The notes under the pieces: generated by a model | What the model was told of the DNA's origin: nothing | Databases searched by the model: none | What the model saw: only the letters and a program-made list of their open reading frames with translations | Source: Escherichia coli | GTDB lineage: Bacteria; Pseudomonadota; Gammaproteobacteria; Enterobacterales; Enterobacteriaceae | Direction: 5' to 3' (one strand) | Assembly: GCF_030013205.1 (NCBI RefSeq) | Contig: NZ_CP122648.1 | DNA: 64,000 nt | Position numbers and translations under genes: made by a program | Shown here: in pieces, positions 1,289 through 23,052 of the stretch | Numbering within the stretch: the first letter of the stretch is position 1 | How the letters are laid out: every line of letters begins with the position of its first letter

Positions 1289-1644
1289 TTATTAAGTTCA
1301 AATTCAGGGCGTGGTGCATCACCTCCTGGTATTGTTGATCAACAAATTAGAGAAAAACTTATTAAACATATGAAATATCGAAGGCTTTTATTTTTCAAAG
1401 TTTCACGAGATGTTTGTATATGAAACTTAGTTAAATCTGTGTTTCTTCCAATTGTAGATCACAATGCCCTTTCTAAATTTTCATCGTTATAAACAAGCCA
1501 TCTATCATATAAAGCAATGAATAATTTAATCGCGATTAATCATCATTAATTGTTATATTATTCACTCAATCTATTTATCAAGTGAATTTGATAAATTCCT
1601 AATTTAAAATATCCACTATTGAGCCAGTATTTAACAACGTTAAG

Positions 1645-1672
1645 ATGTGCAATGTGCAATGTGCAATGTGCA
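1645..1672. repeat. Perfect tandem heptanucleotide repeat (ATGTGCA) x4
   Basis: Read directly: atgtgca repeated four times inside the AT-rich 750-bp leader upstream of vgrG. Confidence 0.9.
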
Positions 1673-2038
1673 GATCATGTTATCAGGGTGGAGCGGTAGC
1701 ATATATTTCTTATGCAATCATTCATTTTAATAATGTTAATTGGATTATTTATTGCTGTGAATAAAAATATATTATGAATATTGGTTTAACTTTGCGTTTT
1801 TGTTACTCGTTGTGATATGCGTACCTGTCCTGAATAACGCCAAGAAACAAGAGGTTGAGCTTGTGATTATTTTTTTGACTGAACAGACACCCGTTTCTGT
1901 AAAGTAATATTTAAACAAAATTCTCACATAACCATAGCATTTTCTGTTCCTTCCCTAATAACGTCTGAAGTCGTCCCGCTTATCACATTATCCGCAGTTG
2001 TACGGTACGGATCATTATTCATTTTACTGGAGGTTGCT

Positions 2039-3925
2039 ATGTCAACCGGATTACGTTTCACACTGGAAGTGGACGGCCTGCCGCCGGATGCTTTTGCGGT
2101 GGTTTCCTTTCATCTGAACCAGTCACTCTCTTCGCTCTTTTCCCTCGATCTCTCCCTGGTCAGCCAGCAGTTTCTCTCCCTTGAATTTGCGCAGGTGCTG
2201 GACAAAATGGCCTACCTGACGATATGGCAGGGCGATGAAGTACAGCGCCGGGTGAAAGGCGTGGTGACCTGGTTTGAACTCGGGGAGAACGACAAAAACC
2301 AGATGCTGTACAGCATGAAGGTGCACCCGCCGCTGTGGCGTGCCGGTCTGCGCCAGAACTTCCGTATCTTCCAGAACGAGGACATCAAAAGCATCCTCGG
2401 CACGATGTTGCAGGAAAACGGGGTGACCGAATGGAGTCCGCTGTTCAGCGAGCCGCATCCTTCCCGTGAGTTTTGTGTCCAGTACGGTGAGACTGATTAC
2501 GATTTCCTGTGCCGGATGGCGGCGGAGGAAGGCATCTTCTTTTATGAGGAGCATGCTTACAAAAGTACCGACCAGAGCCTGGTGCTGTGCGACACAGTCC
2601 GCCATCTGCCCGAATCTTTTGAAATCCCATGGAACCCGAACACCCGTACCGAGGTGAGCACCCTCTGCATCAGCCAGTTCCGCTACAGCGCACAAATCCG
2701 CCCTTCTTCCGTGGTGACCAAAGACTACACCTTTAAACGCCCCGGCTGGGCCGGACGTTTTGAACAGGAAGGCCAGCACCAGGACTACCAGCGCACGCAG
2801 TATGAAGTGTATGACTACCCCGGACGTTTCAAGGGTGCCCACGGGCAGAACTTTGCCCGCTGGCAGATGGACGGCTGGCGAAACAATGCAGAAACCGCGC
2901 GGGGAATGAGTCGTTCGCCGGAGATATGGCCGGGACGACGAATTGTGCTGACGGGGCATCCGCAGGCGAACCTGAACCGGGAATGGCAGGTGGTGGCAAG
3001 TGAACTGCACGGCGAACAGCCACAGGCGGTGCCAGGACGGCAGGGAGCGGGGACGGCGCTGGAGAACCATTTTGCGGTGATCCCGGCAGACAGAACATGG
3101 CGACCACAGCCGTTGCTGAAACCGCTGGTCGACGGCCCGCAGAGCGCTGTCGTGACAGGACCGGCAGGCGAGGAAATCTTCTGCGACGAACATGGTCGCG
3201 TGCGGGTGAAGTTCAACTGGGACCGTTATAACCCGGCAGACCAAGACAGTTCGTGCTGGATCCGTGTGGCACAGGCGTGGGCAGGCACCGGTTTTGGCCA
3301 CCTGGCGATACCACGTGTGGGTCAGGAAGTCATTGTGGACTTCCTCAACGGCGATCCGGACCAGCCGATCATTATGGGGCGCACCTACCACCAGGAAAAC
3401 CGCCCCCCCGGCAGCCTGCCGGGAACAAAGACGCAGATGACCATCCGCTCCAAAACGTACATGGGCAGCGGATTTAATGAGCTGAAGTTTGATGATGCGA
3501 CAGGGAGAGAACAGGTCTACATCCACGCGCAGAAGAACATGGATACCGAAGTGCTCAACGACCGTACCACCACCGTAAAACACGATCACCGCGAAACCGT
3601 AAAAAATGACCAGACGGTCACGATCCAGGAAGGTAACCGCCTTCTTACGGTGGAAAAAGGCCACAAGATCACCGGAGTACTGAAAGGGTCTTTATCTGAG
3701 GATGTCTTTCAGGACAGAGGCACGATTGCCGGTTCGGTGCATGTTGACGCTGTAAACAATGGTGGCGAAGGCGACGGTATACAGGCTTATACGGCGATTA
3801 AGGAAATTTTGCTGGCCGTGGAGGAAAGCAAAATTGCGCTGACGCCGGATGGCATTCAGCTACAGGTCGGGGAATCGACGGTACCGGATCACAGGTGTCA
3901 GTCACACCGACGGGATCCGGCTTAA
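2039..3925 (+). CDS. vgrG: VgrG-family type VI secretion spike protein, apparently C-terminally truncated
   Basis: 628-aa ORF with a GGAGG ribosome-binding site; N-terminus MSTGLRFTLEVDGLPPDAF typical of E. coli VgrG; gp27-like and gp5 OB-fold regions recognisable; ORF ends shortly after the start of the beta-helix repeat region and overlaps the Rhs ORF in another frame. Confidence 0.85.
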   Translation: MSTGLRFTLEVDGLPPDAFAVVSFHLNQSLSSLFSLDLSLVSQQFLSLEFAQVLDKMAYLTIWQGDEVQRRVKGVVTWFELGENDKNQMLYSMKVHPPLWRAGLRQNFRIFQNEDIKSILGTMLQENGVTEWSPLFSEPHPSREFCVQYGETDYDFLCRMAAEEGIFFYEEHAYKSTDQSLVLCDTVRHLPESFEIPWNPNTRTEVSTLCISQFRYSAQIRPSSVVTKDYTFKRPGWAGRFEQEGQHQDYQRTQYEVYDYPGRFKGAHGQNFARWQMDGWRNNAETARGMSRSPEIWPGRRIVLTGHPQANLNREWQVVASELHGEQPQAVPGRQGAGTALENHFAVIPADRTWRPQPLLKPLVDGPQSAVVTGPAGEEIFCDEHGRVRVKFNWDRYNPADQDSSCWIRVAQAWAGTGFGHLAIPRVGQEVIVDFLNGDPDQPIIMGRTYHQENRPPGSLPGTKTQMTIRSKTYMGSGFNELKFDDATGREQVYIHAQKNMDTEVLNDRTTTVKHDHRETVKNDQTVTIQEGNRLLTVEKGHKITGVLKGSLSEDVFQDRGTIAGSVHVDAVNNGGEGDGIQAYTAIKEILLAVEESKIALTPDGIQLQVGESTVPDHRCQSHRRDPA

Positions 3926-6900
3926 ACTGACGTACCACGCCAGCGGCTACCTGAAAGCCATTCACCGCACGGATAACGGCATACAGACGCTGGCGACCTA
4001 CGAACAGGATGCGCGGGGGCGGCTGACAGAAGCGGATGCGCGGCTGGACTACCACCTGTTTTATGAGTACGACGCTGCGGACCGGATCATCCGCTGGTCC
4101 GATAACGACCAGACGTGGAGCCGTTTCACCTACGATGAACAGGGCCGGTGCGTGAATGTCACCGGGGCGGAGGGCTATTACAACGCCACGCTGGACTATG
4201 GTGACGGCTGCACCACCGTGACGGACGGCAAGGGCATTCACCGTTATTACTATGATCCTGACGGCAATATTCTGCGGGAAGCAGCGCCGGACGGCAGCAC
4301 CACCATGTATGAATGGGATGAATTCCATCACCTGCTGGCCCGTCACTCCCCTGCCGGGCGGGTGGAGAAATTTGAATACAACGCCGCACACGGTCAGTTA
4401 AGCCGTTACACGGCGGCAGACGGCGCGGAGTGGCAGTACCGCTATGATGAGCGCGGCCTGCTCAGCAACATCACCGACCCTGCCGGGCAGACGTGGACAC
4501 AGCAGTGTGATGAACGCGGCCTGCCGGTAAGTCTGGTGTCGCCACAGGGCGAAGAGACCCGGCTGGCATACACCGCTCAGGGGCTGCTGTCGGGAATATT
4601 CCGCCAGGATGAACGGCGTCTGGGCATAGAGTACGACCACCACAACCGGCCGGAAACACTCACCGACGTGATGGGCCGTGAACACCACACCGAATACAGC
4701 GGTCACGACCTGCCGGTGAAGATGCGCGGCCCCGGCGGTCAGTCAGTGCGGTTACAGTGGCAGCAGCACCATAAACTGAGCGGCATTGAACGTGCTGGAA
4801 CCGGCGCGGAAGGATTCCGCTACGACCGCCACGGCAACCTGCTGGCCTGGACGGACGGCAACGGCGTTGTCTGGACAATGGAATACGGCCCGTTTGATTT
4901 GCCGGTGGCGCGAACGGACGGTGAAGGCCACCGCTGGCAGTACCGCTACGATAAAGACACGCTGCAACTGACAGAAGTCATTAACCCGCAGGGTGAGTCA
5001 TATCTTTATGTTCTGGATAACTGCGGCCGGGTGACGGAAGAGCATGACTGGGGCGGCGTGGTCTGGCGTTACCGCTATGACGCCGATGGCCTGTGTACCG
5101 CCAGGGTCAACGGCCTGGAGGAAACCATCCTCTACAGCCGGGACGCCGCAGGCCGCCTGGCAGAAGTCATCACGCCGGAAGGCAAAACGCAGTATGCGTA
5201 TGACAAATCCGGCAGGCTTACGGGTATCTTCAGCCCGGACGGCACATCACAGCGCACCGGCTATGACGAACGCGGGCGGGTGAATGTCACCACTCAGGGC
5301 CGACGGGCCATTGAATACCACCACCCCGATGAACACACCGTCATCCGCTGTATCCTGCCACCGGAAGATGAACGCGACAGACACCCCGGTGAATCCCTGC
5401 TGAAAACCACGTACCGCTACAACGCCGCCGGAGAACTGACGGAGGTTATCCTGCCGGGGGATGAGACGCTGACGTTCAGCCGTGATGAGGCAGGACGTGA
5501 AGTGCTCCGGCACAGTAACCGGGGTTTTGCCTGTGAACAGGGCTGGAATGCAGCCGGCCAGTCTGTCAGCCAGCGCGCCGGATTTTTCCCGGAAGAAGCC
5601 ACATGGGGCGGGCTGGTTCCGTCACTGGCGCGGGAATACCGTTATGACAGCGCGGGCAATGTGTCGGCTGTCACCAGCCGGGAAGATTACGGACGGGAAA
5701 CACGGCGGGAATACCGGCTGGACCGGAACGGCCAGGTCACGGCGGTGACAGCCTCAGGCACCGGGCTGGGCTATGGCGAAGGCGATGAGTCCTATGGCTA
5801 TGACAGCTGCGGCTACCTGAAGGCGCAGTCTGCGGGCTGGCACCGGATAAGTGAAGAGACTGACCAGTATGCCGGAGGCCACCGGCTGAAACAGGCCGGA
5901 AACACGCAGTATGACTATGACGCCGCAGGCCGGATGGTCAGCCGCACCAGACACCGTGACGGCTATCGCCCGGAAACAGAGCGGTTCCGGTGGGACAGCC
6001 GTGACCAGCTGACCGGGTATTGCAGCGCACAGGGTGAGCAGTGGGAATACCGCCACGACGCCAGCGGCAGACGAACAGAGAAACGCTGCGACCGGAAGAA
6101 AATCCGCTTCACGTATCTGTGGGACGGCGACAGTATTGCGGAAATCCGGGAATACCGCGATGATAAACTGTACAGCGTACGGCACCTGGTGTTTAACGGC
6201 TTTGAGCTGATAAGCCAGCAGTTCAGCCGGGTACGGCAGGCGCATCCGTCGGTGGCCCCGCAGTGGGTGACACGGACGAATCATGCGGTGAGCGACCTGA
6301 CGGGCCGTCCGCTGATGCTCTTTAACAGTGAAGGTAAAACCGTCTGGCGACCGGGACAGACCAGCCTGTGGGGGCTGGCACTCAGCCTGCCCGCAGACAC
6401 CGGCTACCCGGACCCGCGCGGGGAACTGGACCCGGAAGCCGACCCCGGCCTGCTGTATGCGGGACAGTGGCAGGATGCAGAATCCGGGCTGTGCTATAAC
6501 CGGTTCCGGTATTACGAGCCGGAAACCGGGATGTACCTGGTGAGTGATCCGCTGGGGTTGCTGGGGGGTGAGCAGACTTACCGGTATGTGCCAAATCCGT
6601 GTGGGTGGGTTGATCCGCTGGGATTGGCTGCAAGTTCTAAAATCAGCAGTTTGATGGACTATATTGGCGATGGTCGTCGTGTTAGTGGGCATACGGGTTT
6701 CCTGGATGGGGTTCGTTTATCACGTAGTCAAATAAACAATATTGCTAAAGAAATGGAGAAGCTAGGAATTAAAGTAATAAGGAAAGCAGATAAATATTTG
6801 CCACCAAATGCTAGGGCAGCTTTTGATTATGGCCTTCGCAATATTTATCTTAGGAAAAATGCCACCTTATATGAGGTGTATCATGAAGTGATTCATGCTA

Positions 6901-7079
6901 AGCAATTTGCGAAAATTGGACGAGAAGCATACGAAGCACTAGGACGTTTATCTAGGGAGGAACACGTTCTAAATGAAATATTAAAAAGTAAAAATTTATT
7001 CAATGAAGCGGAAATAGCTCATGCCATAAAATATGTTGAGGGATTGAGAGAAAAATTCATGATGGGACTAATAAATTGA
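3849..7079 (+). CDS. Rhs-family YD-repeat protein lacking the usual N-terminal region, with a C-terminal HExxH-containing tip
   Basis: 1076-aa ORF full of YD repeats (e.g. RYDxxGRL, YxYDxxG); core ends in the hallmark PNPCGWVDPLGL motif (~6590-6630), followed by a ~149-aa AT-rich tip containing HEVIH (6882-6896). The first ATG is inside the repeat region and no PAAR-like N-terminus is present, so this may be a fragment or pseudogene. Confidence 0.8.
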   Translation: MAFSYRSGNRRYRITGVSHTDGIRLKLTYHASGYLKAIHRTDNGIQTLATYEQDARGRLTEADARLDYHLFYEYDAADRIIRWSDNDQTWSRFTYDEQGRCVNVTGAEGYYNATLDYGDGCTTVTDGKGIHRYYYDPDGNILREAAPDGSTTMYEWDEFHHLLARHSPAGRVEKFEYNAAHGQLSRYTAADGAEWQYRYDERGLLSNITDPAGQTWTQQCDERGLPVSLVSPQGEETRLAYTAQGLLSGIFRQDERRLGIEYDHHNRPETLTDVMGREHHTEYSGHDLPVKMRGPGGQSVRLQWQQHHKLSGIERAGTGAEGFRYDRHGNLLAWTDGNGVVWTMEYGPFDLPVARTDGEGHRWQYRYDKDTLQLTEVINPQGESYLYVLDNCGRVTEEHDWGGVVWRYRYDADGLCTARVNGLEETILYSRDAAGRLAEVITPEGKTQYAYDKSGRLTGIFSPDGTSQRTGYDERGRVNVTTQGRRAIEYHHPDEHTVIRCILPPEDERDRHPGESLLKTTYRYNAAGELTEVILPGDETLTFSRDEAGREVLRHSNRGFACEQGWNAAGQSVSQRAGFFPEEATWGGLVPSLAREYRYDSAGNVSAVTSREDYGRETRREYRLDRNGQVTAVTASGTGLGYGEGDESYGYDSCGYLKAQSAGWHRISEETDQYAGGHRLKQAGNTQYDYDAAGRMVSRTRHRDGYRPETERFRWDSRDQLTGYCSAQGEQWEYRHDASGRRTEKRCDRKKIRFTYLWDGDSIAEIREYRDDKLYSVRHLVFNGFELISQQFSRVRQAHPSVAPQWVTRTNHAVSDLTGRPLMLFNSEGKTVWRPGQTSLWGLALSLPADTGYPDPRGELDPEADPGLLYAGQWQDAESGLCYNRFRYYEPETGMYLVSDPLGLLGGEQTYRYVPNPCGWVDPLGLAASSKISSLMDYIGDGRRVSGHTGFLDGVRLSRSQINNIAKEMEKLGIKVIRKADKYLPPNARAAFDYGLRNIYLRKNATLYEVYHEVIHAKQFAKIGREAYEALGRLSREEHVLNEILKSKNLFNEAEIAHAIKYVEGLREKFMMGLIN

Positions 7080-7327
7080 TAAAACATAACAAAATAACTA
7101 TCGAAATGGCTCTTGACTTGGCTCGGCGTGAGTTAGAGTTAAGGGAAATTCCTTATATTAAAAATAGTCTACATGCCAATTACAGCTATAAATCTATTAG
7201 TATTGGTTCTAAGCAAGGTTGGTTAATTTCAGCGAAATTAAAAGTCCCTGAAACTTTTGAGCCTGATATGATATTTATTGAGATATCTGACCCAGAAGGT
7301 TTTATTAATATTCCTGATGTATTATAA
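7076..7327 (+). CDS. Small ORF immediately downstream of the Rhs tip; candidate cognate immunity protein
   Basis: 83-aa ORF with a TTG start overlapping the Rhs stop (alternative ATG at 7106); AT-rich like the toxin tip; position is the classic rhs-immunity arrangement. Function inferred from context only. Confidence 0.45.
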   Translation: MIKHNKITIEMALDLARRELELREIPYIKNSLHANYSYKSISIGSKQGWLISAKLKVPETFEPDMIFIEISDPEGFINIPDVL

Positions 7328-7441
7328 ACTACGTTAGAGGTTTTGTTATAAGGTAATCGGTTTCTTTACAGACCGCTGGCGTACATCGCACAGAGGCTGC
7401 TAACAGGGATATTCCTGCCTGGATGAACGCAAGGCAAGATC

Positions 7442-7753
7442 ATGGAAATAGTGATATACATCACTATTTCCATCCTGATTTTAGCTATCGCATTAATAAA
7501 ACAGCGGATGTTAGCCAATATCGAAACCAGTAACCCGTATCACGCCCAGTACATCCTGCGCCGCCGCGATGATTACCTGGTGCTGTTCGACCGTGATGCC
7601 CTGAGCTGCCGCTTCTTTTATGACGCCTTTCCGGGAATGCGTCTGCGCCACCAGGTGACCGGCGATACCGACGATGACCGCCTGGCACACAGCCCCGCAG
7701 ACCGGATGTATACAGGGAAAGATCATCAGAAGTACACTTTTTGTACTAAATAA
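7442..7753 (+). CDS. Hypothetical 103-aa ORF with hydrophobic N-terminus; possible orphan fragment
   Basis: ORF track; N-terminal 30 codons AT-rich and hydrophobic, remainder GC-rich; no recognisable motif. Confidence 0.25.
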   Translation: MEIVIYITISILILAIALIKQRMLANIETSNPYHAQYILRRRDDYLVLFDRDALSCRFFYDAFPGMRLRHQVTGDTDDDRLAHSPADRMYTGKDHQKYTFCTK

Positions 7754-7789
7754 TTCACATTTTATGTTTAAAAATTGAGATATTCCTCA

Positions 7790-9010
7790 TTACCTGAAGC
7801 TGTTTTTTATTGCTTATACATGATCAAATACTCCTTACATAATTAAGGAGAACAAAATGGAACTTAAAAAATTGATGGAACATATTTCTATTATTCCCGA
7901 TTACAGACAAGCCTGGAAAGTGGAACATAAATTATCGGATATTCTATTGTTGACTATTTGTGCCGTTATTTCTGGTGCGGAAGATTGGGAAGATATAGAG
8001 GATTTTGGGGAAACACATCTCGATTTTTTGAAGCAATATGGTGATTTTGAAAATGGTATTCCTGTTCACGATACCATTGCCAGAGTTGTATCCTGTATCA
8101 GTCCTGCAAAATTTCACGAGTGCTTTATTAACTGGATGCGTGACTGCCATTCTTCAGATGATAAAGACGTCATTGCAATTGATGGAAAAACGCTCCGGCA
8201 CTCTTATGACAAGAGTCGCCGCAGGGGAGCGATTCATGTCATTAGTGCGTTCTCAACAATGCACAGTCTGGTCATCGGACAGATCAGGACGGATGAGAAA
8301 TCCAATGAGATTACAGCTATCCCAGAACTTCTTAACATGCTGGATATTAAAGGAAAAATCATCACAACTGATGCGATGGGTTGCCAGAAAGATATTGCAG
8401 AGAAGATACAAAAACAGGGAGGTGATTATTTATTCGCGGTAAAAGGAAACCAGGGGCGGCTAAATAAAGCCTTCGAGGAAAAATTTCCGCTGAAAGAATT
8501 AAATAATCCAGAGCATGACAGTTACGCAATGAGTGAAAAGAGTCACGGCAGAGAAGAAATCCGTCTTCACATTGTTTGCGATGTCCCTGATGAACTTATT
8601 GATTTCACGTTTGAATGGAAAGGTCTGAAGAAATTATGCGTGGCAGTCTCCTTTCGGTCAATAATAGCAGAACAAAAGAAAGAGCCAGAAATGACGGTCA
8701 GATATTATATTAGTTCTGCTGATTTAACCGCAGAGAAGTTCGCCACAGCAATCCGAAACCACTGGCACGTGGAGAATAAGCTGCACTGGCGTCTGGACGT
8801 GGTAATGAATGAAGACGACTGCAAAATAAGAAGAGGAAATGCAGCAGAATTATTTTCAGGGATACGGCACATCGCTATTAATATTTTGACGAATGATAAG
8901 GTATTCAAGGCAGGGTTAAGACGTAAGATGCGAAAAGCAGCCATGGACAGAAACTATCTGGCGTCAGTCCTTGCGGGGAGCGGGCTTTCGTAATCTTGCC
9001 CTGCCTGCTC
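7790..9010. mobile_element. H-repeat (ISAs1-family) element; boundaries approximate
   Basis: Contains the 378-aa H-repeat transposase gene; this type of element is known to accompany Rhs elements. Ends were not mapped. Confidence 0.6.
7857..8993 (+). CDS. ISAs1-family (H-repeat-associated) transposase
   Basis: 378-aa ORF with AAGGAG ribosome-binding site; sequence [32 protein letters not shown] matches the YhhI/YdcC H-rpt protein family as I recall it. Confidence 0.85.
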
Positions 9011-9263
9011 ACCTCCTCCAGGCACTTCCACTACATGATGACCTGCTCGGTGCCACCGCTCCTTTTCACTATGACGTTAACCTCCCTGTCCCAGGACACC
9101 ATGCTTTTGTCTACATTCTACGCAAACGGCAACTTTTATAACCAGTGTAAAAATAACGTGCCGCAATAGTCATACCTATTAATGGTAAAAAGCTGTCACA
9201 ATTCATAAAAAACCTTAATATACGCCACCCTAAACATAACCAGCGTTAATGTAAGGTTTTTGT

Positions 9264-11501
9264 GTGGACTGGCTTCTTGATGTTTTTGCTACCTGGCTCT
9301 ACGGCTTAAAAGTAATCGCGATAACGTTAGCGGTCATCATGTTCATCAGCGGGCTGGACGATTTTTTTATTGATGTCGTCTACTGGGTACGCCGCATTAA
9401 ACGCAAGTTGAGTGTTTATCGCCGCTACCCGCGAATGAGTTACCGCGAACTGTATAAACCAGATGAAAAACCGTTAGCGATTATGGTTCCGGCGTGGAAT
9501 GAAACGGGCGTCATCGGCAATATGGCCGAGCTGGCGGCGACCACGCTCGACTATGAAAACTATCATATCTTTGTTGGCACCTACCCCAACGACCCCGATA
9601 CTCAGCGTGATGTTGACGAAGTGTGCGCTCGCTTCCCGAATGTGCATAAGGTAGTCTGCGCGCGACCTGGCCCCACCAGCAAAGCCGACTGCCTGAACAA
9701 CGTGCTGGACGCCATCACCCAGTTTGAGCGTAGCGCCAATTTCGCTTTTGCTGGTTTTATTCTGCATGACGCCGAAGATGTGATTTCACCGATGGAATTG
9801 CGTCTGTTCAACTATCTGGTCGAGCGTAAAGATCTGATTCAGATCCCGGTGTATCCGTTCGAACGCGAATGGACGCACTTCACCAGCATGACTTACATTG
9901 ATGAGTTTTCAGAACTGCATGGCAAAGATGTTCCGGTGCGTGAAGCCCTCGCCGGACAAGTGCCCAGCGCAGGCGTCGGTACCTGTTTCAGCCGCCGCGC
10001 CGTGACCGCACTGTTAGCTGACGGTGACGGTATTGCTTTCGACGTGCAGAGTCTTACTGAAGATTACGACATTGGTTTCCGCCTGAAAGAAAAAGGTATG
10101 ACGGAAATTTTTGTCCGTTTTCCGGTGGTGGACGAAGCCAAAGAACGCGAGCAGCGTAAATTTTTACAGCACGCGCGGACGTCAAACATGATCTGCGTGC
10201 GCGAATATTTCCCCGATACCTTTTCGACTGCGGTTCGACAAAAATCTCGCTGGATCATCGGCATTGTTTTCCAGGGCTTTAAAACCCACAAATGGACCTC
10301 CAGCCTGACGCTGAACTACTTTCTCTGGCGCGACCGCAAAGGGGCAATCAGTAACTTTGTCAGCTTCCTCGCGATGCTGGTGATGATCCAGCTTTTGCTG
10401 TTACTGGCGTATGAAAGTTTGTGGCCCGATGCCTGGCATTTCCTTTCTATTTTCAGCGGCAGCGCATGGTTAATGACCCTGCTGTGGCTAAACTTTGGTT
10501 TAATGGTTAACCGCATCGTGCAGCGGGTGATTTTTGTCACTGGCTACTACGGTCTGACGCAGGGGCTGCTATCTGTCCTGCGTCTTTTCTGGGGCAACCT
10601 GATTAACTTCATGGCCAACTGGCGCGCGTTAAAACAGGTACTTCAACACGGCGATCCACGTCGCGTCGCGTGGGATAAAACAACGCATGACTTCCCCAGC
10701 GTGACTGGCGATACCCGCTCGTTGCGTCCGTTAGGTCAAATCCTGCTGGAAAATCAGGTCATCACTGAAGAACAACTCGATACAGCACTGCGTAATCGCG
10801 TCGAAGGTCTACGCCTGGGCGGTTCAATGCTGATGCAGGGGCTGATTAGCGCCGAACAGCTGGCACAGGCGCTGGCAGAGCAAAACAGCGTGGCGTGGGA
10901 GTCGATCGACGCCTGGCAGATCCCTTCATCACTGATTGCCGAAATGCCGGCCTCCGTGGCGCTGCATTATGCAGTGCTGCCGCTGCGTCTGGAAAATGAT
11001 GAGTTAATTGTCGGCAGTGAAGATGGTATTGACCCGGTTTCGCTGGCAGCCCTGACGCGTAAAGTCGGACGCAAAGTGCGTTACGTCATTGTTCTGCGGG
11101 GACAAATTGTCACGGGGTTACGCCACTGGTATGCGCGCCGACGCGGTCACGATCCGCGGGCAATGTTGTACAATGCGGTTCAGCATCAGTGGCTCACGGA
11201 ACAGCAGGCCGGTGAAATCTGGCGGCAATATGTGCCGCATCAGTTCCTGTTCGCCGAAATACTGACCACGCTCGGTCATATTAATCGTTCAGCAATTAAC
11301 GTGTTGTTATTGCGCCATGAACGTAGTTCTCTGCCGCTCGGCAAGTTTTTGGTCACCGAAGGCGTTATCAGCCAGGAAACGTTGGATCGCGTCCTGACAA
11401 TTCAACGCGAATTACAAGTTTCGATGCAATCACTATTACTCAAAGCAGGTTTAAACACAGAACAGGTTGCGCAACTGGAGTCCGAAAATGAAGGAGAATA
11501 A
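9264..11501 (+). CDS. nfrB: Bacteriophage N4 adsorption protein B (inner-membrane glycosyltransferase family 2)
   Basis: 745-aa ORF with GTG start, N-terminal TM helices; length and neighbourhood (nfrA immediately downstream) match K-12 NfrB. Confidence 0.85.
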   Translation: MDWLLDVFATWLYGLKVIAITLAVIMFISGLDDFFIDVVYWVRRIKRKLSVYRRYPRMSYRELYKPDEKPLAIMVPAWNETGVIGNMAELAATTLDYENYHIFVGTYPNDPDTQRDVDEVCARFPNVHKVVCARPGPTSKADCLNNVLDAITQFERSANFAFAGFILHDAEDVISPMELRLFNYLVERKDLIQIPVYPFEREWTHFTSMTYIDEFSELHGKDVPVREALAGQVPSAGVGTCFSRRAVTALLADGDGIAFDVQSLTEDYDIGFRLKEKGMTEIFVRFPVVDEAKEREQRKFLQHARTSNMICVREYFPDTFSTAVRQKSRWIIGIVFQGFKTHKWTSSLTLNYFLWRDRKGAISNFVSFLAMLVMIQLLLLLAYESLWPDAWHFLSIFSGSAWLMTLLWLNFGLMVNRIVQRVIFVTGYYGLTQGLLSVLRLFWGNLINFMANWRALKQVLQHGDPRRVAWDKTTHDFPSVTGDTRSLRPLGQILLENQVITEEQLDTALRNRVEGLRLGGSMLMQGLISAEQLAQALAEQNSVAWESIDAWQIPSSLIAEMPASVALHYAVLPLRLENDELIVGSEDGIDPVSLAALTRKVGRKVRYVIVLRGQIVTGLRHWYARRRGHDPRAMLYNAVQHQWLTEQQAGEIWRQYVPHQFLFAEILTTLGHINRSAINVLLLRHERSSLPLGKFLVTEGVISQETLDRVLTIQRELQVSMQSLLLKAGLNTEQVAQLESENEGE

Positions 11502-14460
11502 CCTTAATCGCGTCATCGGATGGTCTGGTTTACTGCTGACGTCTTTATTGAGTACCAGCGCACTCGCAGACAATATCGGCACCAGCGCAGAAGAGCTGGG
11601 GCTGAGCGATTATCGCCATTTTGTTATTTATCCCCGTCTCGATAAGGCGCTGAAGGCACAAAAAAATAACGACGAAGCAACCGCCATCCGCGAATTTGAA
11701 TATATACACCAACAGGTGCCGGATAATATTCCGCTAACTTTATACCTTGCGGAAGCCTATCGCCATTTTGGTCATGATGACTGGGCGCGGCTGTTGCTTG
11801 AGGATCAACTGAAACGTCACCCAGGAGATGCCCGACTTGAGCGCAGTCTGGCGGCTATTCCAGTTGAAGTGAAAAGCGTTACGACTGTTGAAGAACTGCT
11901 TGCCCAGCAAAAAGCATGCGATGCTGCGCCGACCCTGCGTTGTCGCAGTGAAGTTGGGCAGAATGCCCTGCGGCTGGCACAATTACCTGTCGCCAGAGCG
12001 CAACTGAACGATGCGACGTTTGCTGCATCGCCGAAAGGAAAAACGCTGCGAACCGATCTGCTGCAACGGGCAATCTACCTGAAGCAATGGTCCCAGGCAG
12101 ATACGCTATACAATGAAGCACGCCAGCAGAACACATTAAGCGCGGCAGAACGCCGCCAGTGGTTTGATGTGCTTCTTGCCGGGCAGCTGGACGATCGGAT
12201 CCTGGCGCTGCAATCACAGGGGATCTTCACCGATCCGCAGTCATATATTACTTACGCGACCGCGCTGGCTTATCGTGACAAAAAAGCACGCCTCCAGCGT
12301 TATCTCATTGAAAATACGCCGCTATTTACCACGGACGCACAAGAGAAAAGTTGGCTCTATCTGTTATCTAAATACAGCGGCAACCCCGTTCAGGCGTTGG
12401 CGAATTATACGGTACAGTTTGCCGACAACCGCCAGTATGTTGTTGGCGCGACGCTACCGGTGCTGTTAAAAGAAGGTCAGTACGACGCAGCGCAAAAACT
12501 GCTCGCCACCCTCCCCGCCAATGAAATGCTTGAGGAGCGTTATACCGTTAGCGTAGCGACCCATAACAAGGCTGAAGCTCTGCGTCTGGCACGATTGCTG
12601 TATCAGCAAGAACCGGCAAATCTTACCCGCCTGGATCAACTGACCTGGCAACTGATGCAGAACGAGCAGTCACGCGAAGCTGCCGATTTATTGCTGCAAC
12701 GCTATCCTTTCCAGGGCGATGCGCGTGTCAGCCAGACTTTAATGGCGCGACTGGCGTCTCTGCTGGAAAGTCATCCTTACCTGGCAACTCCGGCGAAGGT
12801 GGCGATTTTATCGAAACCCTTACCGCTGGCGGAGCAACGTCAGTGGCAAAGTCAGTTGCCGGGTATTGCAGATAATTGCCCGGCAATAGTTCGCTTGCTG
12901 GGCGATATGTCGCCTTCCTACGATGCCGCCGCCTGGAACCGTCTGGCAAAGTGTTATCGGGACACGCTACCCGGTGTGGCGTTGTATGCATGGCTTCAGG
13001 CCGAACAACGACAACCGAACGCCTGGCAACATCGTGCGGTAGCCTATCAGGCGTATCAGGTTGAGGACTACGCCACCGCACTGGCGGCCTGGCAGAAAAT
13101 CAGTCTTCACGACATGAGCAATGAGGATCTGCTTGCTGCTGCCAATACCGCCCAGGCGGCAGGAAATGGTGCGGCTCGCGATCGCTGGCTTCAGCAGGCA
13201 GAACAACGTGGGCTGGGAAACAATGCCCTCTACTGGTGGCTGCATGCGCAACGTTACATTCCTGGTCAGCCGGAACTCGCACTGAACGATCTCACGCGCT
13301 CAATCAATATTGCGCCTTCTGCCAACGCTTACGTTGCGCGGGCGACAATTTATCGCCAACGTCATAATGTCCCAGCGGCGGTGAGTGATTTGCGCGCCGC
13401 GCTGGAACTGGAACCGAATAATAGCAACACCCAGGCAGCGCTCGGTTACGCCTTGTGGGATAGCGGTGATATCGCACAGTCGCGGGAAATGCTCGAACAG
13501 GCGCATAAAGGGCTACCAGACGATCCGGCACTTATCCGACAACTGGCCTACGTGAACCAGCGTCTGGATGACATGCCTGCGACGCAGCACTACGCCCGGC
13601 TGGTGATTGATGACATTGATAATCAGGCGCTGATAACCCCACTGACCCCAGAGCAAAATCAGCAACGCTTCAATTTCCGCCGTCTGCATGAGGAGGTCGG
13701 TCGCCGCTGGACGTTCAGTTTCGATTCTTCCATCGGCTTGCGTTCCGGCGCGATGAGTACCGCTAACAATAATGTCGGCGGCGCAGCGCCAGGGAAAAGC
13801 TATCGTAGCTACGGGCAACTGGAAGCCGAGTACCGCATCGGACGCAATATGCTGCTGGAAGGCGACCTGCTCTCGGTTTACAGCCGTGTATTTGCCGATA
13901 CCGGAGAAAACGGGGTGATGATGCCGGTGAAAAATCCGATGTCCGGCACCGGTCTGCGCTGGAAGCCGCTGCGCGATCAGATCTTTTTCCTCGCCGTCGA
14001 ACAGCAGTTGCCGCTGAACGGGCAAAATGGCGCATCCGATACCATGCTGCGCGCCAGCGCCTCATTCTTTAATGGCGGCAAATACAGCGATGAATGGCAC
14101 CCGAACGGTTCAGGCTGGTTTGCCCAAAACCTGTACCTCGATGCGGCGCAATATGTCCGCCAGGATATTCAGGCGTGGACGGCAGATTATCGCGTCAGCT
14201 GGCATCAGAAGGTGGCGAACGGACAGACTATTGAGCCTTACGCTCACGTTCAGGACAACGGTTATCGTGATAAAGGCACTCAGGGCGCGCAGCTTGGCGG
14301 TGTCGGGGTCCGCTGGAATATCTGGACCGGCGAGACGCACTACGACGCCTGGCCGCACAAAGTCAGTCTCGGCGTCGAGTATCAACATACCTTTAAGGCA
14401 ATTAATCAACGTAACGGAGAGCGCAACAACGCGTTTCTCACCATTGGAGTGCACTGGTAA
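11488..14460 (+). CDS. nfrA: Bacteriophage N4 adsorption protein A (outer-membrane TPR protein)
   Basis: 990-aa product from MKENNLNRVIGWSGLLL (signal peptide); overlaps the nfrB stop; C-terminal beta-rich region. Confidence 0.85.
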   Translation: MKENNLNRVIGWSGLLLTSLLSTSALADNIGTSAEELGLSDYRHFVIYPRLDKALKAQKNNDEATAIREFEYIHQQVPDNIPLTLYLAEAYRHFGHDDWARLLLEDQLKRHPGDARLERSLAAIPVEVKSVTTVEELLAQQKACDAAPTLRCRSEVGQNALRLAQLPVARAQLNDATFAASPKGKTLRTDLLQRAIYLKQWSQADTLYNEARQQNTLSAAERRQWFDVLLAGQLDDRILALQSQGIFTDPQSYITYATALAYRDKKARLQRYLIENTPLFTTDAQEKSWLYLLSKYSGNPVQALANYTVQFADNRQYVVGATLPVLLKEGQYDAAQKLLATLPANEMLEERYTVSVATHNKAEALRLARLLYQQEPANLTRLDQLTWQLMQNEQSREAADLLLQRYPFQGDARVSQTLMARLASLLESHPYLATPAKVAILSKPLPLAEQRQWQSQLPGIADNCPAIVRLLGDMSPSYDAAAWNRLAKCYRDTLPGVALYAWLQAEQRQPNAWQHRAVAYQAYQVEDYATALAAWQKISLHDMSNEDLLAAANTAQAAGNGAARDRWLQQAEQRGLGNNALYWWLHAQRYIPGQPELALNDLTRSINIAPSANAYVARATIYRQRHNVPAAVSDLRAALELEPNNSNTQAALGYALWDSGDIAQSREMLEQAHKGLPDDPALIRQLAYVNQRLDDMPATQHYARLVIDDIDNQALITPLTPEQNQQRFNFRRLHEEVGRRWTFSFDSSIGLRSGAMSTANNNVGGAAPGKSYRSYGQLEAEYRIGRNMLLEGDLLSVYSRVFADTGENGVMMPVKNPMSGTGLRWKPLRDQIFFLAVEQQLPLNGQNGASDTMLRASASFFNGGKYSDEWHPNGSGWFAQNLYLDAAQYVRQDIQAWTADYRVSWHQKVANGQTIEPYAHVQDNGYRDKGTQGAQLGGVGVRWNIWTGETHYDAWPHKVSLGVEYQHTFKAINQRNGERNNAFLTIGVHW

Positions 14461-15351
14461 ATGCGTAAGTTCATTTTCGTATTGCTGACACTGCTTTTGG
14501 TCAGCCCTTTTTCCTTTGCGATGAAAGGTATTATCTGGCAACCACAAAACCGTGATAGTCAGGTTACCGATACCCAGTGGCAGGGGCTGATGAGTCAGTT
14601 ACGTTTGCAAGGCTTCGATACCCTGGTTTTGCAATGGACCCGTTACGGCGATGCATTCACCCAGCCAGAACAGCGCGCGTTATTGTTTAAGCGTGCAGCA
14701 GCTGCGCAACAGGCTGGCCTGAAGCTGATTGTCGGGCTGAATGCCGATCCGGAATTTTTTATGCACCAGAAACAGTCATCCGCGGCGCTGGAAAGCTATC
14801 TTAATCGCCTGCTGGCTGCCGATCTCCAGCAAGCCAGATTATGGAGCGCCGCGCCTGGCGTAACGCCGGATGGCTGGTACATCAGCGCGGAAATTGACGA
14901 CCTGAACTGGCGCAGCGAAGCCGCCCGTCAACCGTTGCTGACATGGTTAAACAACGCGCAGCGGTTGATTAGCGATGTTTCAGCAAAACCGGTTTATATC
15001 AGTAGTTTTTTCGCCGGAAACATGTCGCCCGATGGCTATCGCCAACTGCTGGAACAAGTTAAAACAACCGGCGTTAATGTCTGGGTACAGGATGGCAGCG
15101 GCGTGAATAAACTTACCGCTGAACAGCGTGAACGTTATCTACAGGCCAGCGCCGATTGCCAAAGTTCCGCCCCTGCCAGCGGCATTGTTTATGAACTGTT
15201 TGTCGCCGGCAAAGGTAAAACCTTTACAGCGAAACCGAAACCGGATGCAGAGATCGCCTCGCTGTTAGCGAAACGTTCCTCTTGCGGTAAAGACACGCTC
15301 TATTTCTCTCTGCGCTATTTGCCCGTTGCGCACGGCATTCTCGAGTATTAA
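14461..15351 (+). CDS. ybcH: Uncharacterised periplasmic protein YbcH
   Basis: 296-aa ORF with signal peptide, immediately after nfrA as in K-12. Confidence 0.75.
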   Translation: MRKFIFVLLTLLLVSPFSFAMKGIIWQPQNRDSQVTDTQWQGLMSQLRLQGFDTLVLQWTRYGDAFTQPEQRALLFKRAAAAQQAGLKLIVGLNADPEFFMHQKQSSAALESYLNRLLAADLQQARLWSAAPGVTPDGWYISAEIDDLNWRSEAARQPLLTWLNNAQRLISDVSAKPVYISSFFAGNMSPDGYRQLLEQVKTTGVNVWVQDGSGVNKLTAEQRERYLQASADCQSSAPASGIVYELFVAGKGKTFTAKPKPDAEIASLLAKRSSCGKDTLYFSLRYLPVAHGILEY

Positions 15352-19495: not shown

Positions 19496-19616
19496 TATTT
19501 TTGTTATTCTTGTATGAAATCGTCTCATGTACACGGTCCTTTTTTCGCCGAAAACTGATATTACTTTAATCAAAAGTTGACGTGCCAGATTCGAAGTAAA
19601 TTTATAAAATATCAAA

Positions 19617-19922
19617 TCAATATACATTTTGCACCTTCGAGATAGTAATGAATGTTACTGTAACATGAGTTACAAACAGCTTCATACCCAGAGCTACTGA
19701 TGTATCAACACGATTCAACAATACCCGATATTTATTCCATGCCTCCAGCAACGATCTTTCTTCCTCCGTTGCGATTTCCAGATCTACAGCATCCTGCAGT
19801 GGCGCAATATACTCACTGAATTCCTGGATGTAGAACTGTGTGGTGACGGTCTTCCAGCCATTCGGCTCCTGCTGTATCGAAGCATACCAGGCTATTTCAA
19901 TATCGCTATGCTGCGGCAGCAT
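19617..19922 (-). CDS. Hypothetical phage protein sharing a ~37-aa segment with the gene remnant at 20700-20867
   Basis: 101-aa ORF; the central segment [34 protein letters not shown] is encoded by one copy of the ~120-bp direct repeat. Confidence 0.4.
19699..19818. repeat. Direct repeat copy A (~120 bp, ~88% identical to copy B)
   Basis: Hand alignment to 20748-20867. Confidence 0.8.
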
Positions 19923-19978
19923 TTAACCCCTTGTAATTCATCGCCATAATTGATTTAATTCACAAATAAAACTATAAC

Positions 19979-20647
19979 ATGGTGAAATTAATGAAAAAAA
20001 ACACAGATGATGGGGCTAAAATTTACACACCACTTACCCTAAAGCTTTATGACTGGTGGGTTTTGGGAGTATCAAATCGGCTTGCATGGGGATGTACTAC
20101 AAAGGAACACCTTCTTCCACACTTTCTGGAACATTTAGGTAACAACCATCTGGATATTGGTGTTGGAACTGGGTTTTACCTTACTCACGTACCTGAGAGT
20201 AGTCTGATATCTTTAATGGATTTGAACGAAGCTAGCCTGAACGCGGCATCTACAAGGGCTGGGGAATCAAAAATTAAACATAAAATTAGCCATGATGTTT
20301 TTGAACCTTATCCCGCGGCGTTACATGGTCAATTTGATTCCATTTCCATGTTTTACCTTCTTCACTGCCTGCCTGGAAATATATCTACAAAAAGCTGTGT
20401 AATACGCAATGCGGCGCAGGCCTTAACTGACGATGGAACTCTATACGGAGCCACAATTCTTGGCGATGGAGTTGTGCACAATAGCTTCGGTCAAAAACTG
20501 ATGCGCATTTACAATCAGAAAGGCATCTTTTCAAACACAAAAGATTCCGAAGAAGGCTTAACACATATACTCTCAGAGCATTTCGAGAATGTTAAAACCA
20601 AGGTTCAAGGTACTGTAGTAATGTTTTCCGCTTCAGGGAAAAAATAG
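19979..20647 (+). CDS. Class I SAM-dependent methyltransferase (putative)
   Basis: 222-aa ORF with Rossmann motif I (LDIGVGTGFY); sits between the two direct repeats, opposite in orientation to neighbouring phage genes. Confidence 0.65.
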   Translation: MVKLMKKNTDDGAKIYTPLTLKLYDWWVLGVSNRLAWGCTTKEHLLPHFLEHLGNNHLDIGVGTGFYLTHVPESSLISLMDLNEASLNAASTRAGESKIKHKISHDVFEPYPAALHGQFDSISMFYLLHCLPGNISTKSCVIRNAAQALTDDGTLYGATILGDGVVHNSFGQKLMRIYNQKGIFSNTKDSEEGLTHILSEHFENVKTKVQGTVVMFSASGKK

Positions 20648-20654
20648 CATCCAA

Positions 20655-20687
20655 CCGCAGCACGTTCTTGCTTAAGACGTGCTGCGG
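20655..20687. terminator. Hairpin (11-bp perfect stem) between the methyltransferase gene and the gene remnant; likely bidirectional terminator
   Basis: ccgcagcacgt / acgtgctgcgg with 11-nt loop; T-run follows on the minus strand. Confidence 0.5.
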
Positions 20688-20747
20688 CATAATCCCAATG
20701 ATTACTCCCTGACAGGGTTCGTAGGCCACTCAATATCAGGTGCAGTT

Positions 20748-20867
20748 GATGTATCAACACGGTTCAGCAACACCCGATACTTTTTCCAGGCTTCCAGCAA
20801 TGAGGTTTCTTCCTCCGTTGCGATTTCCAGATCCACAGCATCCTGAAGTGGCGCAATATGCTCACTG
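20748..20867. repeat. Direct repeat copy B (~120 bp)
   Basis: Hand alignment to 19699-19818. Confidence 0.8.
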
Positions 20868-21104
20868 GCTACCCTGGCGACGCGCCTTACGCGTTAACCA
20901 GCCTTCTGCTTCCAGCCGTGCGATAGCCGTTCTGACGGTACTCATCCCCGCGCCAATCTGGCGTGCAATGGTTTCAATTGATGGCCAGCACACACCTTCG
21001 TCATTACTGAAATCAGCCAGGCGGGCCATAATTGCCACGCTGGATAACTTCATGCCTGACGCAGCGCAACCATCCCATACATAGCCGGTTAATTTAGTGC
21101 TCAT
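20862..21104 (-). pseudogene. Phage HTH protein (replication-initiator-like N-terminus), truncated / frameshifted
   Basis: 80-aa ORF with HTH (SIETIARQIGAGMSTVRTAIARLE); the homologous continuation ([20 protein letters not shown]...) is in another frame immediately downstream. Confidence 0.5.
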
Positions 21105-21113
21105 GACCGACCT

Positions 21114-21452
21114 CTATTTCCCTGAATTTACGACGAAACTGTTCGAGCGGGCTGAAGCACTCATGCTCATAGCCTTCGCGGAGGTAGATAACCCGTTGTG
21201 TTTCCGGCTCCCAACGAATGACTCTGACGGGTACTCCGTAGTGATCTTTGAACCAGCGGTTAACTTGTCGCAAAGGACTGTCTCCTTCTGCCGGTTGAAA
21301 TCACCCACAGCCCACTCTGCAAAGCTGTGGGTTACAATTTCCCTGTCACCTGGTACATTCACTGCATAGCAATATTCCACCTTCGCTTTTCCACCCGGTA
21401 CAGGAAGCGCAATCAGTTGCGAGCGACGGTAGTGTGTTGTTAAACTGTTCAT
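21114..21452 (-). CDS. Hypothetical phage protein
   Basis: 112-aa ORF; ATGA overlap with the upstream CII-like gene suggests translational coupling. Confidence 0.4.
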
Positions 21453-22018
21453 GCGTTAGTTTCTCCACAACCAGAAGCAATCGACGCCACGACGCCCGGA
21501 GCTGCACACTCGCGGGCGTCATTACTTTCTGAAATGCAAAAAATTTTGTAGACAAGTGCTGCATGCTCCTGCAGCTTCGAAATTGAGAGATACAGCTCGT
21601 CGTTAATTGCTGTCTTCTCATGCGGTTCCACTACACCGTCTTCGATTGCTGAACGAATCTGTTTTGAATAACTGCCGATCTGTTCAATGACTTCCAGCAG
21701 ACGCTGGTTAATATCGGCGTTGTCCACATCCTCGACGTCAGGAAGAGACACAAAGACGCCATTTGCAGACTGCGCCACAGCATCAGCAATGAAGTGAGTG
21801 CCACCAGCACGCTGTAAAACCATTGCCCATCCCAGCGGGAAAATCTGATCGCCATCTGCACGAAGGCGGTTGAATAAAGCGTTTTCTGTTACATCGAGCC
21901 AGTCAGCCGCTTCAGCGTAACCACCCGGCAACGCCGCGATAGTTTTTCTGACAGCTTTCACGTACCACTCAGGCTGTTTTTCTATTTTCCAGTGATGCTT
22001 ACCCACGATTAGCCTCAT
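21449..22018 (-). CDS. Phage CII-like / YdaT-family regulatory protein (putative)
   Basis: 189-aa ORF directly downstream of the cro-like gene in the rightward early operon; assignment by position and general resemblance. Confidence 0.45.
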
Positions 22019-22049
22019 CGTTCTGTGGTTAAAAATTGAAAGTGTTCTG

Positions 22050-22274
22050 CTAATCTTTCGGATAGATATCCGGTCTTAAGTCAGATTTCGTAATTGCACC
22101 TGACGTGCATTGCTCAAGTTTTTTAGCCAGCACAAAACTGGCTTTTTTATAGCCATTGAAAACCAGCCGTAAGTAGCCAGGTGTTGAGCCAACTTTTCCG
22201 GCCAACTCGCCCTGCTGTTCTTTGGTTAAAGAGTCCCAATACGCTTTCATACAATATGTACCTCCGATGTACAT
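22050..22274 (-). CDS. Cro-like / YdaS-family HTH regulator
   Basis: Small ORF divergent from the cI-like repressor; likely true start at MKAYWDSL (22250); HTH-like GSTPGYLRLVFNG segment. Confidence 0.6.
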   Translation of the reverse strand: MYIGGTYCMKAYWDSLTKEQQGELAGKVGSTPGYLRLVFNGYKKASFVLAKKLEQCTSGAITKSDLRPDIYPKD

Positions 22275-22325
22275 ATCACATGATTAAAATGAACCTTCAA
22301 GATACTTGTACCTTAACGGTACAAG
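22258..22325. promoter_or_regulatory. Divergent cI/cro control region with palindromic operator-like sites
   Basis: Perfect palindrome cttgtacc-ttaac-ggtacaag (22305-22325) and tgtacc...gtaca (22258-22274) between the divergent repressor genes. Confidence 0.6.
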
Positions 22326-22340
22326 GGTTTTAATTTCGTT

Positions 22341-23015
22341 ATGAAAACAATCCATGACATCCGGCGGTCTAACGCCAGAAAACTGAGAGATGGTGTTGGC
22401 GGGAATTCTTCCTTTGCCACTATGATTGATCGCGAGCCAACCCAGACCAGCAGGTTTATGGGAGATGGTGCTACTAAAAATATCGGTGACAGCATGGCAC
22501 GACACATCGAAAAATGTTTCGACCTGCCTGTCGGATGGCTCGATCAAGAACACCAGACAACGAACATCACAAAAAAACCTGATGTTTCAATCACTAATAA
22601 ACAAATCACATTAGTCCCTGTCATATCATGGGTACAGGCCGGAGCATGGAAAGAAGTTGGATATTCTGAGGTTGATTTGAGCACAGCAGAAACGTATCCC
22701 TGCCCTGTACCCTGTGGGGAAATGACTTATATCCTGCGGGTGATAGGTGATTCAATGATTGATGAGTACCGCCCGGGAGACATGATTTTTGTCGATCCTG
22801 AAGTACCTGCCTGCCACGGTGACGACGTTATTGCATTGATGCACGATACAGGTGAAACCACCTTCAAAAGGTTGATAGAAGATGGGACACAGCGTTATCT
22901 CAAAGCGTTAAACCCAAACTGGCCTGAGCCTTACATTAAGATCAACGGTAATTGCTCTATAATTGGAACTGTGATTTTCTCAGGAAAACCAAGAAGATAC
23001 AAAATCAAAGCCTAA
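22341..23015 (+). CDS. CI-like phage repressor with LexA/S24 autopeptidase domain
   Basis: 224-aa ORF; N-terminal HTH region and C-terminal S24 domain (GDSM..., TFKRL). Confidence 0.8.
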   Translation: MKTIHDIRRSNARKLRDGVGGNSSFATMIDREPTQTSRFMGDGATKNIGDSMARHIEKCFDLPVGWLDQEHQTTNITKKPDVSITNKQITLVPVISWVQAGAWKEVGYSEVDLSTAETYPCPVPCGEMTYILRVIGDSMIDEYRPGDMIFVDPEVPACHGDDVIALMHDTGETTFKRLIEDGTQRYLKALNPNWPEPYIKINGNCSIIGTVIFSGKPRRYKIKA

Positions 23016-23027
23016 TCAATGTTTATG

Positions 23028-23052
23028 AACCTGCTTCGGCAGGTTTTTTTAT
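23028..23052 (+). terminator. Rho-independent terminator after the cI-like gene
   Basis: aacctgc-ttcg-gcaggtt stem-loop followed by ttttttt. Confidence 0.7.

Follow-up and report, generated by a model that had tools for sequence, protein, structure and literature searches.

What does the AT-rich end of a broken rhs gene encode, and can any part of it still work? The question arises in a 64,000-nt stretch of Escherichia coli DNA (RefSeq assembly GCF_030013205.1, contig NZ_CP122648.1), hereafter the window, where an open reading frame (ORF) of 1076 amino acids (aa) at 3849-7079 is followed by a second one of 83 aa at 7076-7327 that opens with TTG. Both lie at the 3' end of an E. coli vgrG–eagR–rhs island, which extends from cusS to nfrB, and the region 6500-7500 is 100% identical to porcine enterotoxigenic E. 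coli and O139:H1 genomes. We consider it highly probable that the two frames hold the known Rhs-CT1/Tox-MPTase4 pair, a cytoplasmic zinc endopeptidase and its immunity protein, in a locus that has been disarmed by a deletion. The parts of the locus that bear on this reading are listed here, the tip being the exchangeable C-terminal toxin domain of the Rhs protein.

2039-3883, plus strand: remnant of vgrG (TssI), matching TIGR03361 VI_Rhs_Vgr (E=1.8e-188); RefSeq pseudogene without its C-terminus
3881-3883, no strand: deletion junction with 3 bp of microhomology, placed by BLAST against the intact locus of strain 90-1 (L002)
3884-6629, plus strand: remnant of the Rhs YD-repeat shell (YD_repeat, E=2.5e-72) with the Rhs-associated core (Rhs_assc_core, residues 865-926)
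6612-6626, plus strand: DPLGL, the end of the core as read from the sequence; one Ala is next, and then residue 928 at 6630
6630-7079, plus strand: exchangeable toxin tip, 149 aa and stop, with the Tox-MPTase4 zincin-like domain (Pfam match at nt 6669-7055)
6882-6896, plus strand: HEVIH, tip residues 85-89, the predicted zinc-binding His pair and catalytic Glu
6957-6959, plus strand: Glu110 of the tip (GAG; ORF residue 1037), the best candidate for a third metal ligand
7076-7327, plus strand: putative cognate immunity gene of the CTI1 family, 83 aa, with a TTG start overlapping the toxin TGA and a predicted PepSY-like alpha+beta fold

The border between carrier and tip is sharp. The tail of the 1076-aa translation (...WVDPLGLAASSK...) passes through DPLGL directly into the tip, the NCBIfam Rhs_assc_core match stops at residue 926, and the guanine-cytosine (GC) content falls from 0.616 in the core (3884-6629) to 0.364 in the tip (6630-7079), the small ORF being at 0.313. 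The original prediction for this DNA, made without database searches, had read the core as ending at DPLGL and the last ~149 codons as an abrupt switch to AT-rich composition, and this description stands. A segment that starts one residue past DPLGL, at the end of Rhs_assc_core and at the drop in GC, has the position expected of a polymorphic-toxin module.

The tip matches the Pfam family PF15640 (Tox-MPTase4) over the whole model (positions 1-132 of 132; E=3e-33, 115 bits). This family was described as a zincin-like metallopeptidase of polymorphic toxins, distantly related to Wss1 and marked by the motifs F[DN], [RK] and HExxH; an E. coli member was considered probably delivered by a type VI secretion system (T6SS), and no immunity family was given (Zhang et al. 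2012; PMC3482391). The three motifs are found in the tip as F65-D66, R75-K76 and H85-E-V-I-H89. Relatives in the protein database carry PF15640 as a precomputed assignment, and in RefSeq the gene goes under the name 'zincin-like metallopeptidase toxin domain-containing protein' and is flagged as a pseudogene. It had initially been stated that neither protein could be placed in a named family from sequence alone; that view has to be given up for the tip, but it holds for the 83-aa ORF, which found no match in Pfam, NCBIfam, PADLOC or PHROGs. Searches with the tip alone returned no match in NCBIfam, PADLOC or PHROGs, apart from PHROGs hits at the level of noise (E~0.01). The word-indexed protein search recovers only close fragments of the tip, full-length Rhs proteins being clustered by their core. 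The possibility that the tip belongs with HExxH effectors of the VgrG2b or M91/NleD type was considered and dropped, Tox-MPTase4 being its sole Pfam assignment.

HEVIH, encoded by CAT GAA GTG ATT CAT, is the single HExxH of the tip and lies exactly where it had been reported, at 6882-6896; the pattern turns up in 1.2% of residue shuffles of the tip. We aligned 22 tip-family sequences from Proteobacteria and Bacteroidota, with identities down to 23%. Seven residues (F65, E82, H85, E86, H89, G97 and E110) are invariant in this alignment, the whole HExxH signature included, and R75 (at least 90%), E128, H131 and Y135 come close. The glutamates 15-20 residues downstream that had been put forward as a third ligand do not survive the comparison: E99 and E102, 10-13 residues past the second His, vary, and the invariant Glu is E110, located 21 residues past the second His and 25 past the first. 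It is the only invariant acidic residue downstream of HExxH, and conservation and the structural model together make it the best candidate and likely third metal ligand. The identification of E110 as a conserved third-ligand candidate is a minor new point of this analysis.

In the structural model, the tip adopts a minimal zincin fold, small and alpha/beta, with HExxH on the central helix; HEVIH falls in predicted helix 80-96 and E110 on the next helix, 98-119. Its closest structural matches are ArdC and Spartan/SprT. Since these are specialised DNA-associated enzymes, and since a literature search found no biochemical data, one may ask whether the tip is a zincin-like scaffold and not a conventional protease, cleaving a non-peptide bond or being toxic by binding alone. 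However, ArdC and Spartan are themselves metalloproteases, the strict conservation of HExxH and of the downstream Glu from Proteobacteria to Bacteroidota argues for metal-dependent catalysis, and the partner immunity proteins resemble a peptidase-inhibitor fold, as described below. We therefore regard a non-proteolytic tip as unlikely and favour a zinc-dependent peptidase.

The 83-aa ORF, proposed from the start as a cognate immunity gene, belongs to a protein family of its own. A profile search of 1.84 billion representatives (50% clustering) recovered 26 proteins of ~78-85 aa, eight of them with E<=1e-10, and a search of the PDB with the immunity profile found no relative. The family accompanies Tox-MPTase4. 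Among 5426 complete E. coli genomes, at >=99% identity, the DNA of the tip was found in 1148-1163 and that of the ORF in 1153 (~21%), a ratio near 1:1. Homologues stand next to Tox-MPTase4 in five independent contexts, the window included, the other four being carried differently. A 66%-identical homologue overlaps by 4 bp the stop of a PAAR-Rhs gene with a 63%-identical Tox-MPTase4 tip (L004); a 40%-identical one lies 12 nt past a Tox-MPTase4 domain that is 52% identical and borne by a carrier other than Rhs (L008/L009); another member follows a stand-alone 211-aa Tox-MPTase4 protein (L017; E=6e-30); and the last is part of an orphan cassette behind another PAAR-Rhs (L018; E=2e-36). Two further contigs with homologues (L007, L010) are too short for the neighbours to be read.

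An ORF of this size might be a chance frame in AT-rich DNA or an unrelated gene, and its hypothetical annotation, together with the empty library searches reported above, could be taken that way. Against this stand a family of 26 representatives with a confident fold model, its place downstream of Tox-MPTase4 in five contexts, its co-divergence with the toxin, and the designation of the gene as the cognate immunity protein cti1 in the secondary literature, so that an accidental frame appears extremely improbable. Given the adjacency, co-occurrence and co-divergence with Tox-MPTase4, the comparative sequence data identify the 83-aa ORF as the putative cognate immunity gene of the tip. The expectation that a zinc-metallopeptidase-type exchangeable Rhs tip would be paired here with its own immunity gene is thus upheld by the Tox-MPTase4 match, the zincin model, the co-conservation of the two genes and a published pair; a lack of co-conservation had been named as a refuting outcome, and profile searches and structure predictions had been proposed as checks, which returned Tox-MPTase4 and a zincin for the tip and an unnamed, PepSY-like family for the ORF.

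The homologues also inform the choice of start codon. In the sequence AATTGA, the TTG at 7076-7078 overlaps the toxin stop TGA at 7077-7079, as had been noticed. RefSeq (WP_001299578.1, hypothetical protein) starts the gene at a later TTG, 7118, giving 69 aa, and UniProt holds versions of 83 and 73 aa. Because the TTG/TGA overlap and the N-terminal residues are kept in L004 and in a metagenome contig (L003), and the homologues of L018 and L003 start with ATG at the equivalent position, the RefSeq start is probably 14 codons too late, and the 83-aa start is the better supported of the two. This probable misannotation is a second minor new point.

The same metagenome contig L003, of enterobacterial type, carries a 33% GC island at 6500-15300, past lolCDE-nagK-cobB, with ~15 small ORFs. 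Two tandem 83-aa immunity paralogues are found there without toxins, each behind the last codons of a lost toxin gene, and the island looks like a polyimmunity (orphan immunity) locus.

The AlphaFold 2 model of the immunity protein (predicted local distance difference test score, pLDDT, of 88) consists of a helix, three long strands and a short fourth strand. Foldseek against AFDB50 retrieved the family itself first and then, weakly, PepSY proteins. Each Tox-MPTase4 cassette seen in Bacteroidota has behind it a 92-aa ORF matching Pfam PepSY (E=0.0057 to 1.4e-5), and hhalign aligned these 92-aa ORFs with the proteobacterial immunity family over the full length (62% probability, E=7.7e-5). On the strength of the models, we describe the E. 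coli immunity family as PepSY-like in fold but, as it does not match the PepSY profile, not as a member of PepSY. A search of the available literature found no paper linking Tox-MPTase4 immunity to PepSY, and the PepSY-like nature of this unnamed family is a third minor new point. A bolder proposal, which we put forward tentatively and would not favour over its negation, is that the Tox-MPTase4 immunity proteins form one ancient family derived from, or converging on, the PepSY peptidase-inhibitor fold. If true, immunity in Proteobacteria (~80 aa) and Bacteroidota (92 aa) would work in the manner of the M4 propeptides that hold thermolysin-like enzymes inactive.

The Bacteroidota cassettes (L014-L016) encode stand-alone Tox-MPTase4 proteins (212 and 242 aa), each with its 92-aa PepSY-like ORF, and are located downstream of a large ART-domain toxin; these arrays look like a reservoir of toxin cassettes. 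A scan of genome contigs with two narrow peptide patterns returned two loci, one in Flavobacterium humi and one on an E. coli-like Rhs contig assigned to a 'Bacillota bacterium' metagenome-assembled genome (L006, JAEWTL010000053.1). The latter has a near-identical E. coli Rhs shell with a different tip and, downstream at 3001-3072, a 24-residue remnant of the MPTase4 tip; almost certainly, the contig got into that genome as E. coli contamination or through mis-binning.

The pair itself has been encountered before. Reviews citing Ma et al. 2017 (Environ Microbiol) describe an E. coli PAAR-Rhs protein with an MPTase4 domain, Rhs-CT1, and its immunity protein CTI1, in strain STEC004, with an antibacterial activity of Rhs-CT1 that depends on the T6SS and is reportedly neutralised by CTI1 (PMC6730261, PMC6099711). 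A preprint identifies AAF13_16115/16120 of E. coli O104:H4 C227-11 as Rhs-CT1/cti1, at ~98% identity (bioRxiv 10.1101/2024.03.05.583533). The C227-11 locus, between cusS and nfrB, comprises VgrG, a DcrB-related chaperone, a 1620-aa Rhs and the small ORF; between it and the window, 148 of 149 tip residues and 83 of 83 residues of the small ORF are identical. The pair is thus already known and annotated, and what the window holds is an ordinary remnant and not a new system.

That it is a remnant follows from comparison with intact loci, which contain VgrG, a DcrB-related protein, a 1620-aa Rhs and the small ORF. In BLAST alignments with the locus of strain 90-1 (L002), window positions 1501-3883 correspond to 3403-5771 and positions 3881-9300 to 8001-13417; hence ~2232 bp of the intact locus are gone, with a clean junction at the 3 bp microhomology. 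The deletion took the last ~57 nt of vgrG, the whole gene for the DcrB-related/DUF1795 Eag chaperone and the first ~555 codons of rhs, which in intact alleles encode the prePAAR motif AARLGDEIQH, hydrophobic/transmembrane helices, PAAR and the start of the shell. In the alignment with intact Rhs, the rhs ORF of the window sets in only at residue ~556. Its ATG at 3849 is fortuitous, lying within out-of-frame vgrG, and the first 11 residues are unmatched in intact Rhs; the vgrG frame, in turn, continues out of frame into rhs and stops at 3925. RefSeq flags both genes as pseudogenes in an identical genome, vgrG without its C-terminus and rhs without its N-terminus. The junction is rare, being present in only 28 of the 5426 complete genomes.

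Could the remnant still be a working weapon, either as the 1076-aa protein started at ATG 3849 or joined by frameshift to VgrG, and be delivered by the T6SS? A long intact frame with an ATG, a tip and an autoproteolysis motif that are intact and near-identical to those of functional alleles, and the overlap of the vgrG and rhs frames at 3849-3925 all speak for it. PAAR-Rhs effectors, however, need a PAAR-bearing N-terminus and an Eag chaperone in order to be mounted on VgrG, and the deletion here has taken prePAAR, the transmembrane helices, PAAR, about one-third of the shell and the gene for the Eag chaperone. In addition, the first 11 codons come from vgrG read out of frame, and both genes are RefSeq pseudogenes. 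The locus has neither an N-terminal prePAAR/PAAR on its Rhs nor an intact VgrG with an Eag chaperone gene, and a functional weapon is very unlikely. Judging from the gene structure, the toxin of this genome cannot be loaded or delivered, because rhs is a pseudogene that has lost its N-terminal part and is joined to a truncated vgrG. The immunity gene is intact, and protection from kin that fire the same toxin is a plausible remaining function; we infer that it is expressed in this strain and would be of benefit to it.

In PAAR-Rhs effectors, the Rhs shell encloses the tip, which autoproteolysis at DPLGL sets free, and PAAR attaches the protein to VgrG, helped by Eag. By this scheme, the 1620-aa prePAAR/PAAR-Rhs shell of intact copies would enclose the 149-aa C-terminal Tox-MPTase4 domain, the Rhs aspartyl autoprotease would release the tip at DPLGL, PAAR would seat the protein on VgrG with Eag assisting, and the T6SS would fire the toxin into neighbouring bacteria. 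There its most likely role would be that of a zinc endopeptidase in the cytoplasm, H85, H89 and E110 being putative metal ligands and E86 the putative general base, and the 83-aa immunity protein, also predicted to be cytoplasmic, would most likely bind and block the peptidase through its PepSY-like fold. At the window locus, the 2.2-kb deletion would have ended toxin delivery and the immunity gene would still protect.

A cytoplasmic site of action is suggested because the carrier is a transmembrane prePAAR protein and the immunity protein is without a signal peptide. Periplasmic immunity proteins normally carry signal peptides, and the prePAAR/transmembrane/Eag class has reportedly been linked, by Ahmad et al. 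in 2020, to delivery across the inner membrane. Among the 26 aligned members of the immunity family, none has a signal peptide or an N-terminal hydrophobic signal sequence, and the intact carrier is of the prePAAR class, has transmembrane helices and comes with an Eag chaperone. These two features set a cytoplasmic peptidase apart from a toxin that would act in the periplasm, with proteins of the cell wall or membrane, or peptidoglycan, as its targets, like the VgrG2b-type metallopeptidases; other HExxH effectors of the T6SS are indeed periplasmic (PMC6899460, PMC12992299), but for the tip this appears quite unlikely.

Several points weigh against the interpretation of the locus as the disarmed Rhs-CT1 pair with a cytoplasmic peptidase. 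The tie to the STEC004 pair is indirect, passing through secondary sources and through identity with C227-11. The preprint states, without detail, that MPTase4 acts on the 'membrane and wall' (bioRxiv 10.1101/2024.03.05.583533). Sequence searches of the PDB, with the single tip and with the tip profile, found no relative, and a literature search found no enzymatic or structural data for the Tox-MPTase4 family. Pfam PepSY matched neither the window ORF (E<=10) nor any of the 26 family members (E<=0.1). Finally, a promoter scan found no plus-strand promoter-like site within the tip from which the immunity gene could be transcribed, in a scan in which promoter-like sites were overall no commoner than in shuffles.

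Two further features complete the Rhs element downstream of the immunity gene.

7531-7710, plus strand: orphan 180-bp fragment of rhs shell, 91.7% identical to 7761-7940 of the strain 90-1 locus; RefSeq partial pseudogene
7857-8993, plus strand: ISEc1 (ISAs1-family, H-repeat) transposase gene, from the RefSeq annotation of the identical locus; 378-aa ORF

The fragment at 7531-7710 derives from an inner part of intact rhs, within the segment deleted from the window rhs. RefSeq lists it as a doubly truncated pseudogene. It is also found in intact loci and therefore predates the deletion. The ISEc1 transposase gene closes the Rhs element immediately ahead of nfrB. At 7442-7473, 115 nt past the immunity stop, there is an inverted repeat whose 14-bp arms match perfectly around a 4-nt loop (ATGGAAATAGTGAT ATAC ATCACTATTTCCAT), with a T-rich run behind it; it has a terminator-like score but only 4 G-C pairs, and a 103-codon ORF (7442-7753) without a family match begins at the same place. 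At the other end, the 750-bp spacer between cusS and vgrG (1288-2039), with GC down to 26%, is probably where the vgrG–rhs island has its left boundary and its promoter region.

Elsewhere in the window, a second Rhs element begins at ~62180-64000 on the minus strand, next to ylbG/mnmH according to the annotation of the identical genome. It includes an RHS core pseudogene with a frameshift, a 151-aa ORF that stands apart and is annotated 'RHS repeat-associated core domain', and a pair of small hypothetical ORFs, possibly the remnant of its tip and immunity gene. A cryptic prophage remnant occupies ~19600-26700, from ompT to tRNA-Arg, with fragments of tail-fibre assembly genes, ymfL/ymfT/ymfK, yfdP/yfdQ and a truncated integrase, and allW is frameshifted at ~52200-53700.

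Tox-MPTase4 has been a defined family since 2012, and a report of 2017 already presented the E. coli pair as a working T6SS effector–immunity pair, so that the locus carries little weight as a discovery. A disarmed copy that retains immunity only does bear on predicting which strains are attackers and which are merely resistant. A cytoplasmic substrate of the peptidase may represent a new antibacterial target.

Comparison with known systems places each part of the locus. With Pfam PF15640, the tip shares the full-length match, the motifs and the C-terminal place on an Rhs carrier, and we found no difference; relative to the family as described in 2012, what is added here is a specific immunity family of ~80 aa tied to the domain. 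Like the tip, the minimal zincins of the SprT, Wss1 and ArdC type have a small zincin fold of alpha/beta type whose central helix carries HExxH. These families take their third ligand from a His a short way past HExxH, whereas the tip has no His at that place (HEVIHAKQFAK) and no DNA-binding module; the predicted position of E110 is instead that of gluzincins, whose ligand Glu lies on the following helix. The immunity protein is modelled with the alpha+beta fold type of PepSY (PF03413), which includes the propeptide domains that inhibit M4/M36 metallopeptidases. Typical PepSY proteins, however, are secreted or anchored in the membrane, while the E. coli protein is stand-alone, predicted to be cytoplasmic and without a match to the PepSY hidden Markov model. 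The Rhs-CT1/CTI1 pair of STEC004/C227-11 shares the site, the Rhs core and the Tox-MPTase4 domain with the window, but the C227-11 locus is intact, and the window has lost the VgrG C-terminus, the Eag chaperone and the 555 N-terminal Rhs residues that bear PAAR.

Other strains show the same module on carriers that have decayed differently. In O157:H7 (L019, Rafaela_II, 5666-7248), the same tip and ORF are found on a 444-aa rhs fragment behind a full Rhs, which bears a different tip with a 135-aa immunity gene, and in strain 042 (L020, 5641-7688) the tip–immunity module has been kept after an independent truncation. In contrast to O157:H7, the module in the window was orphaned by a 5' deletion of the only rhs copy and not by displacement through a newly acquired tip. 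With the O157:H7 and 042 cases, decay of the carrier with retention of the toxin–immunity module has therefore happened several times.

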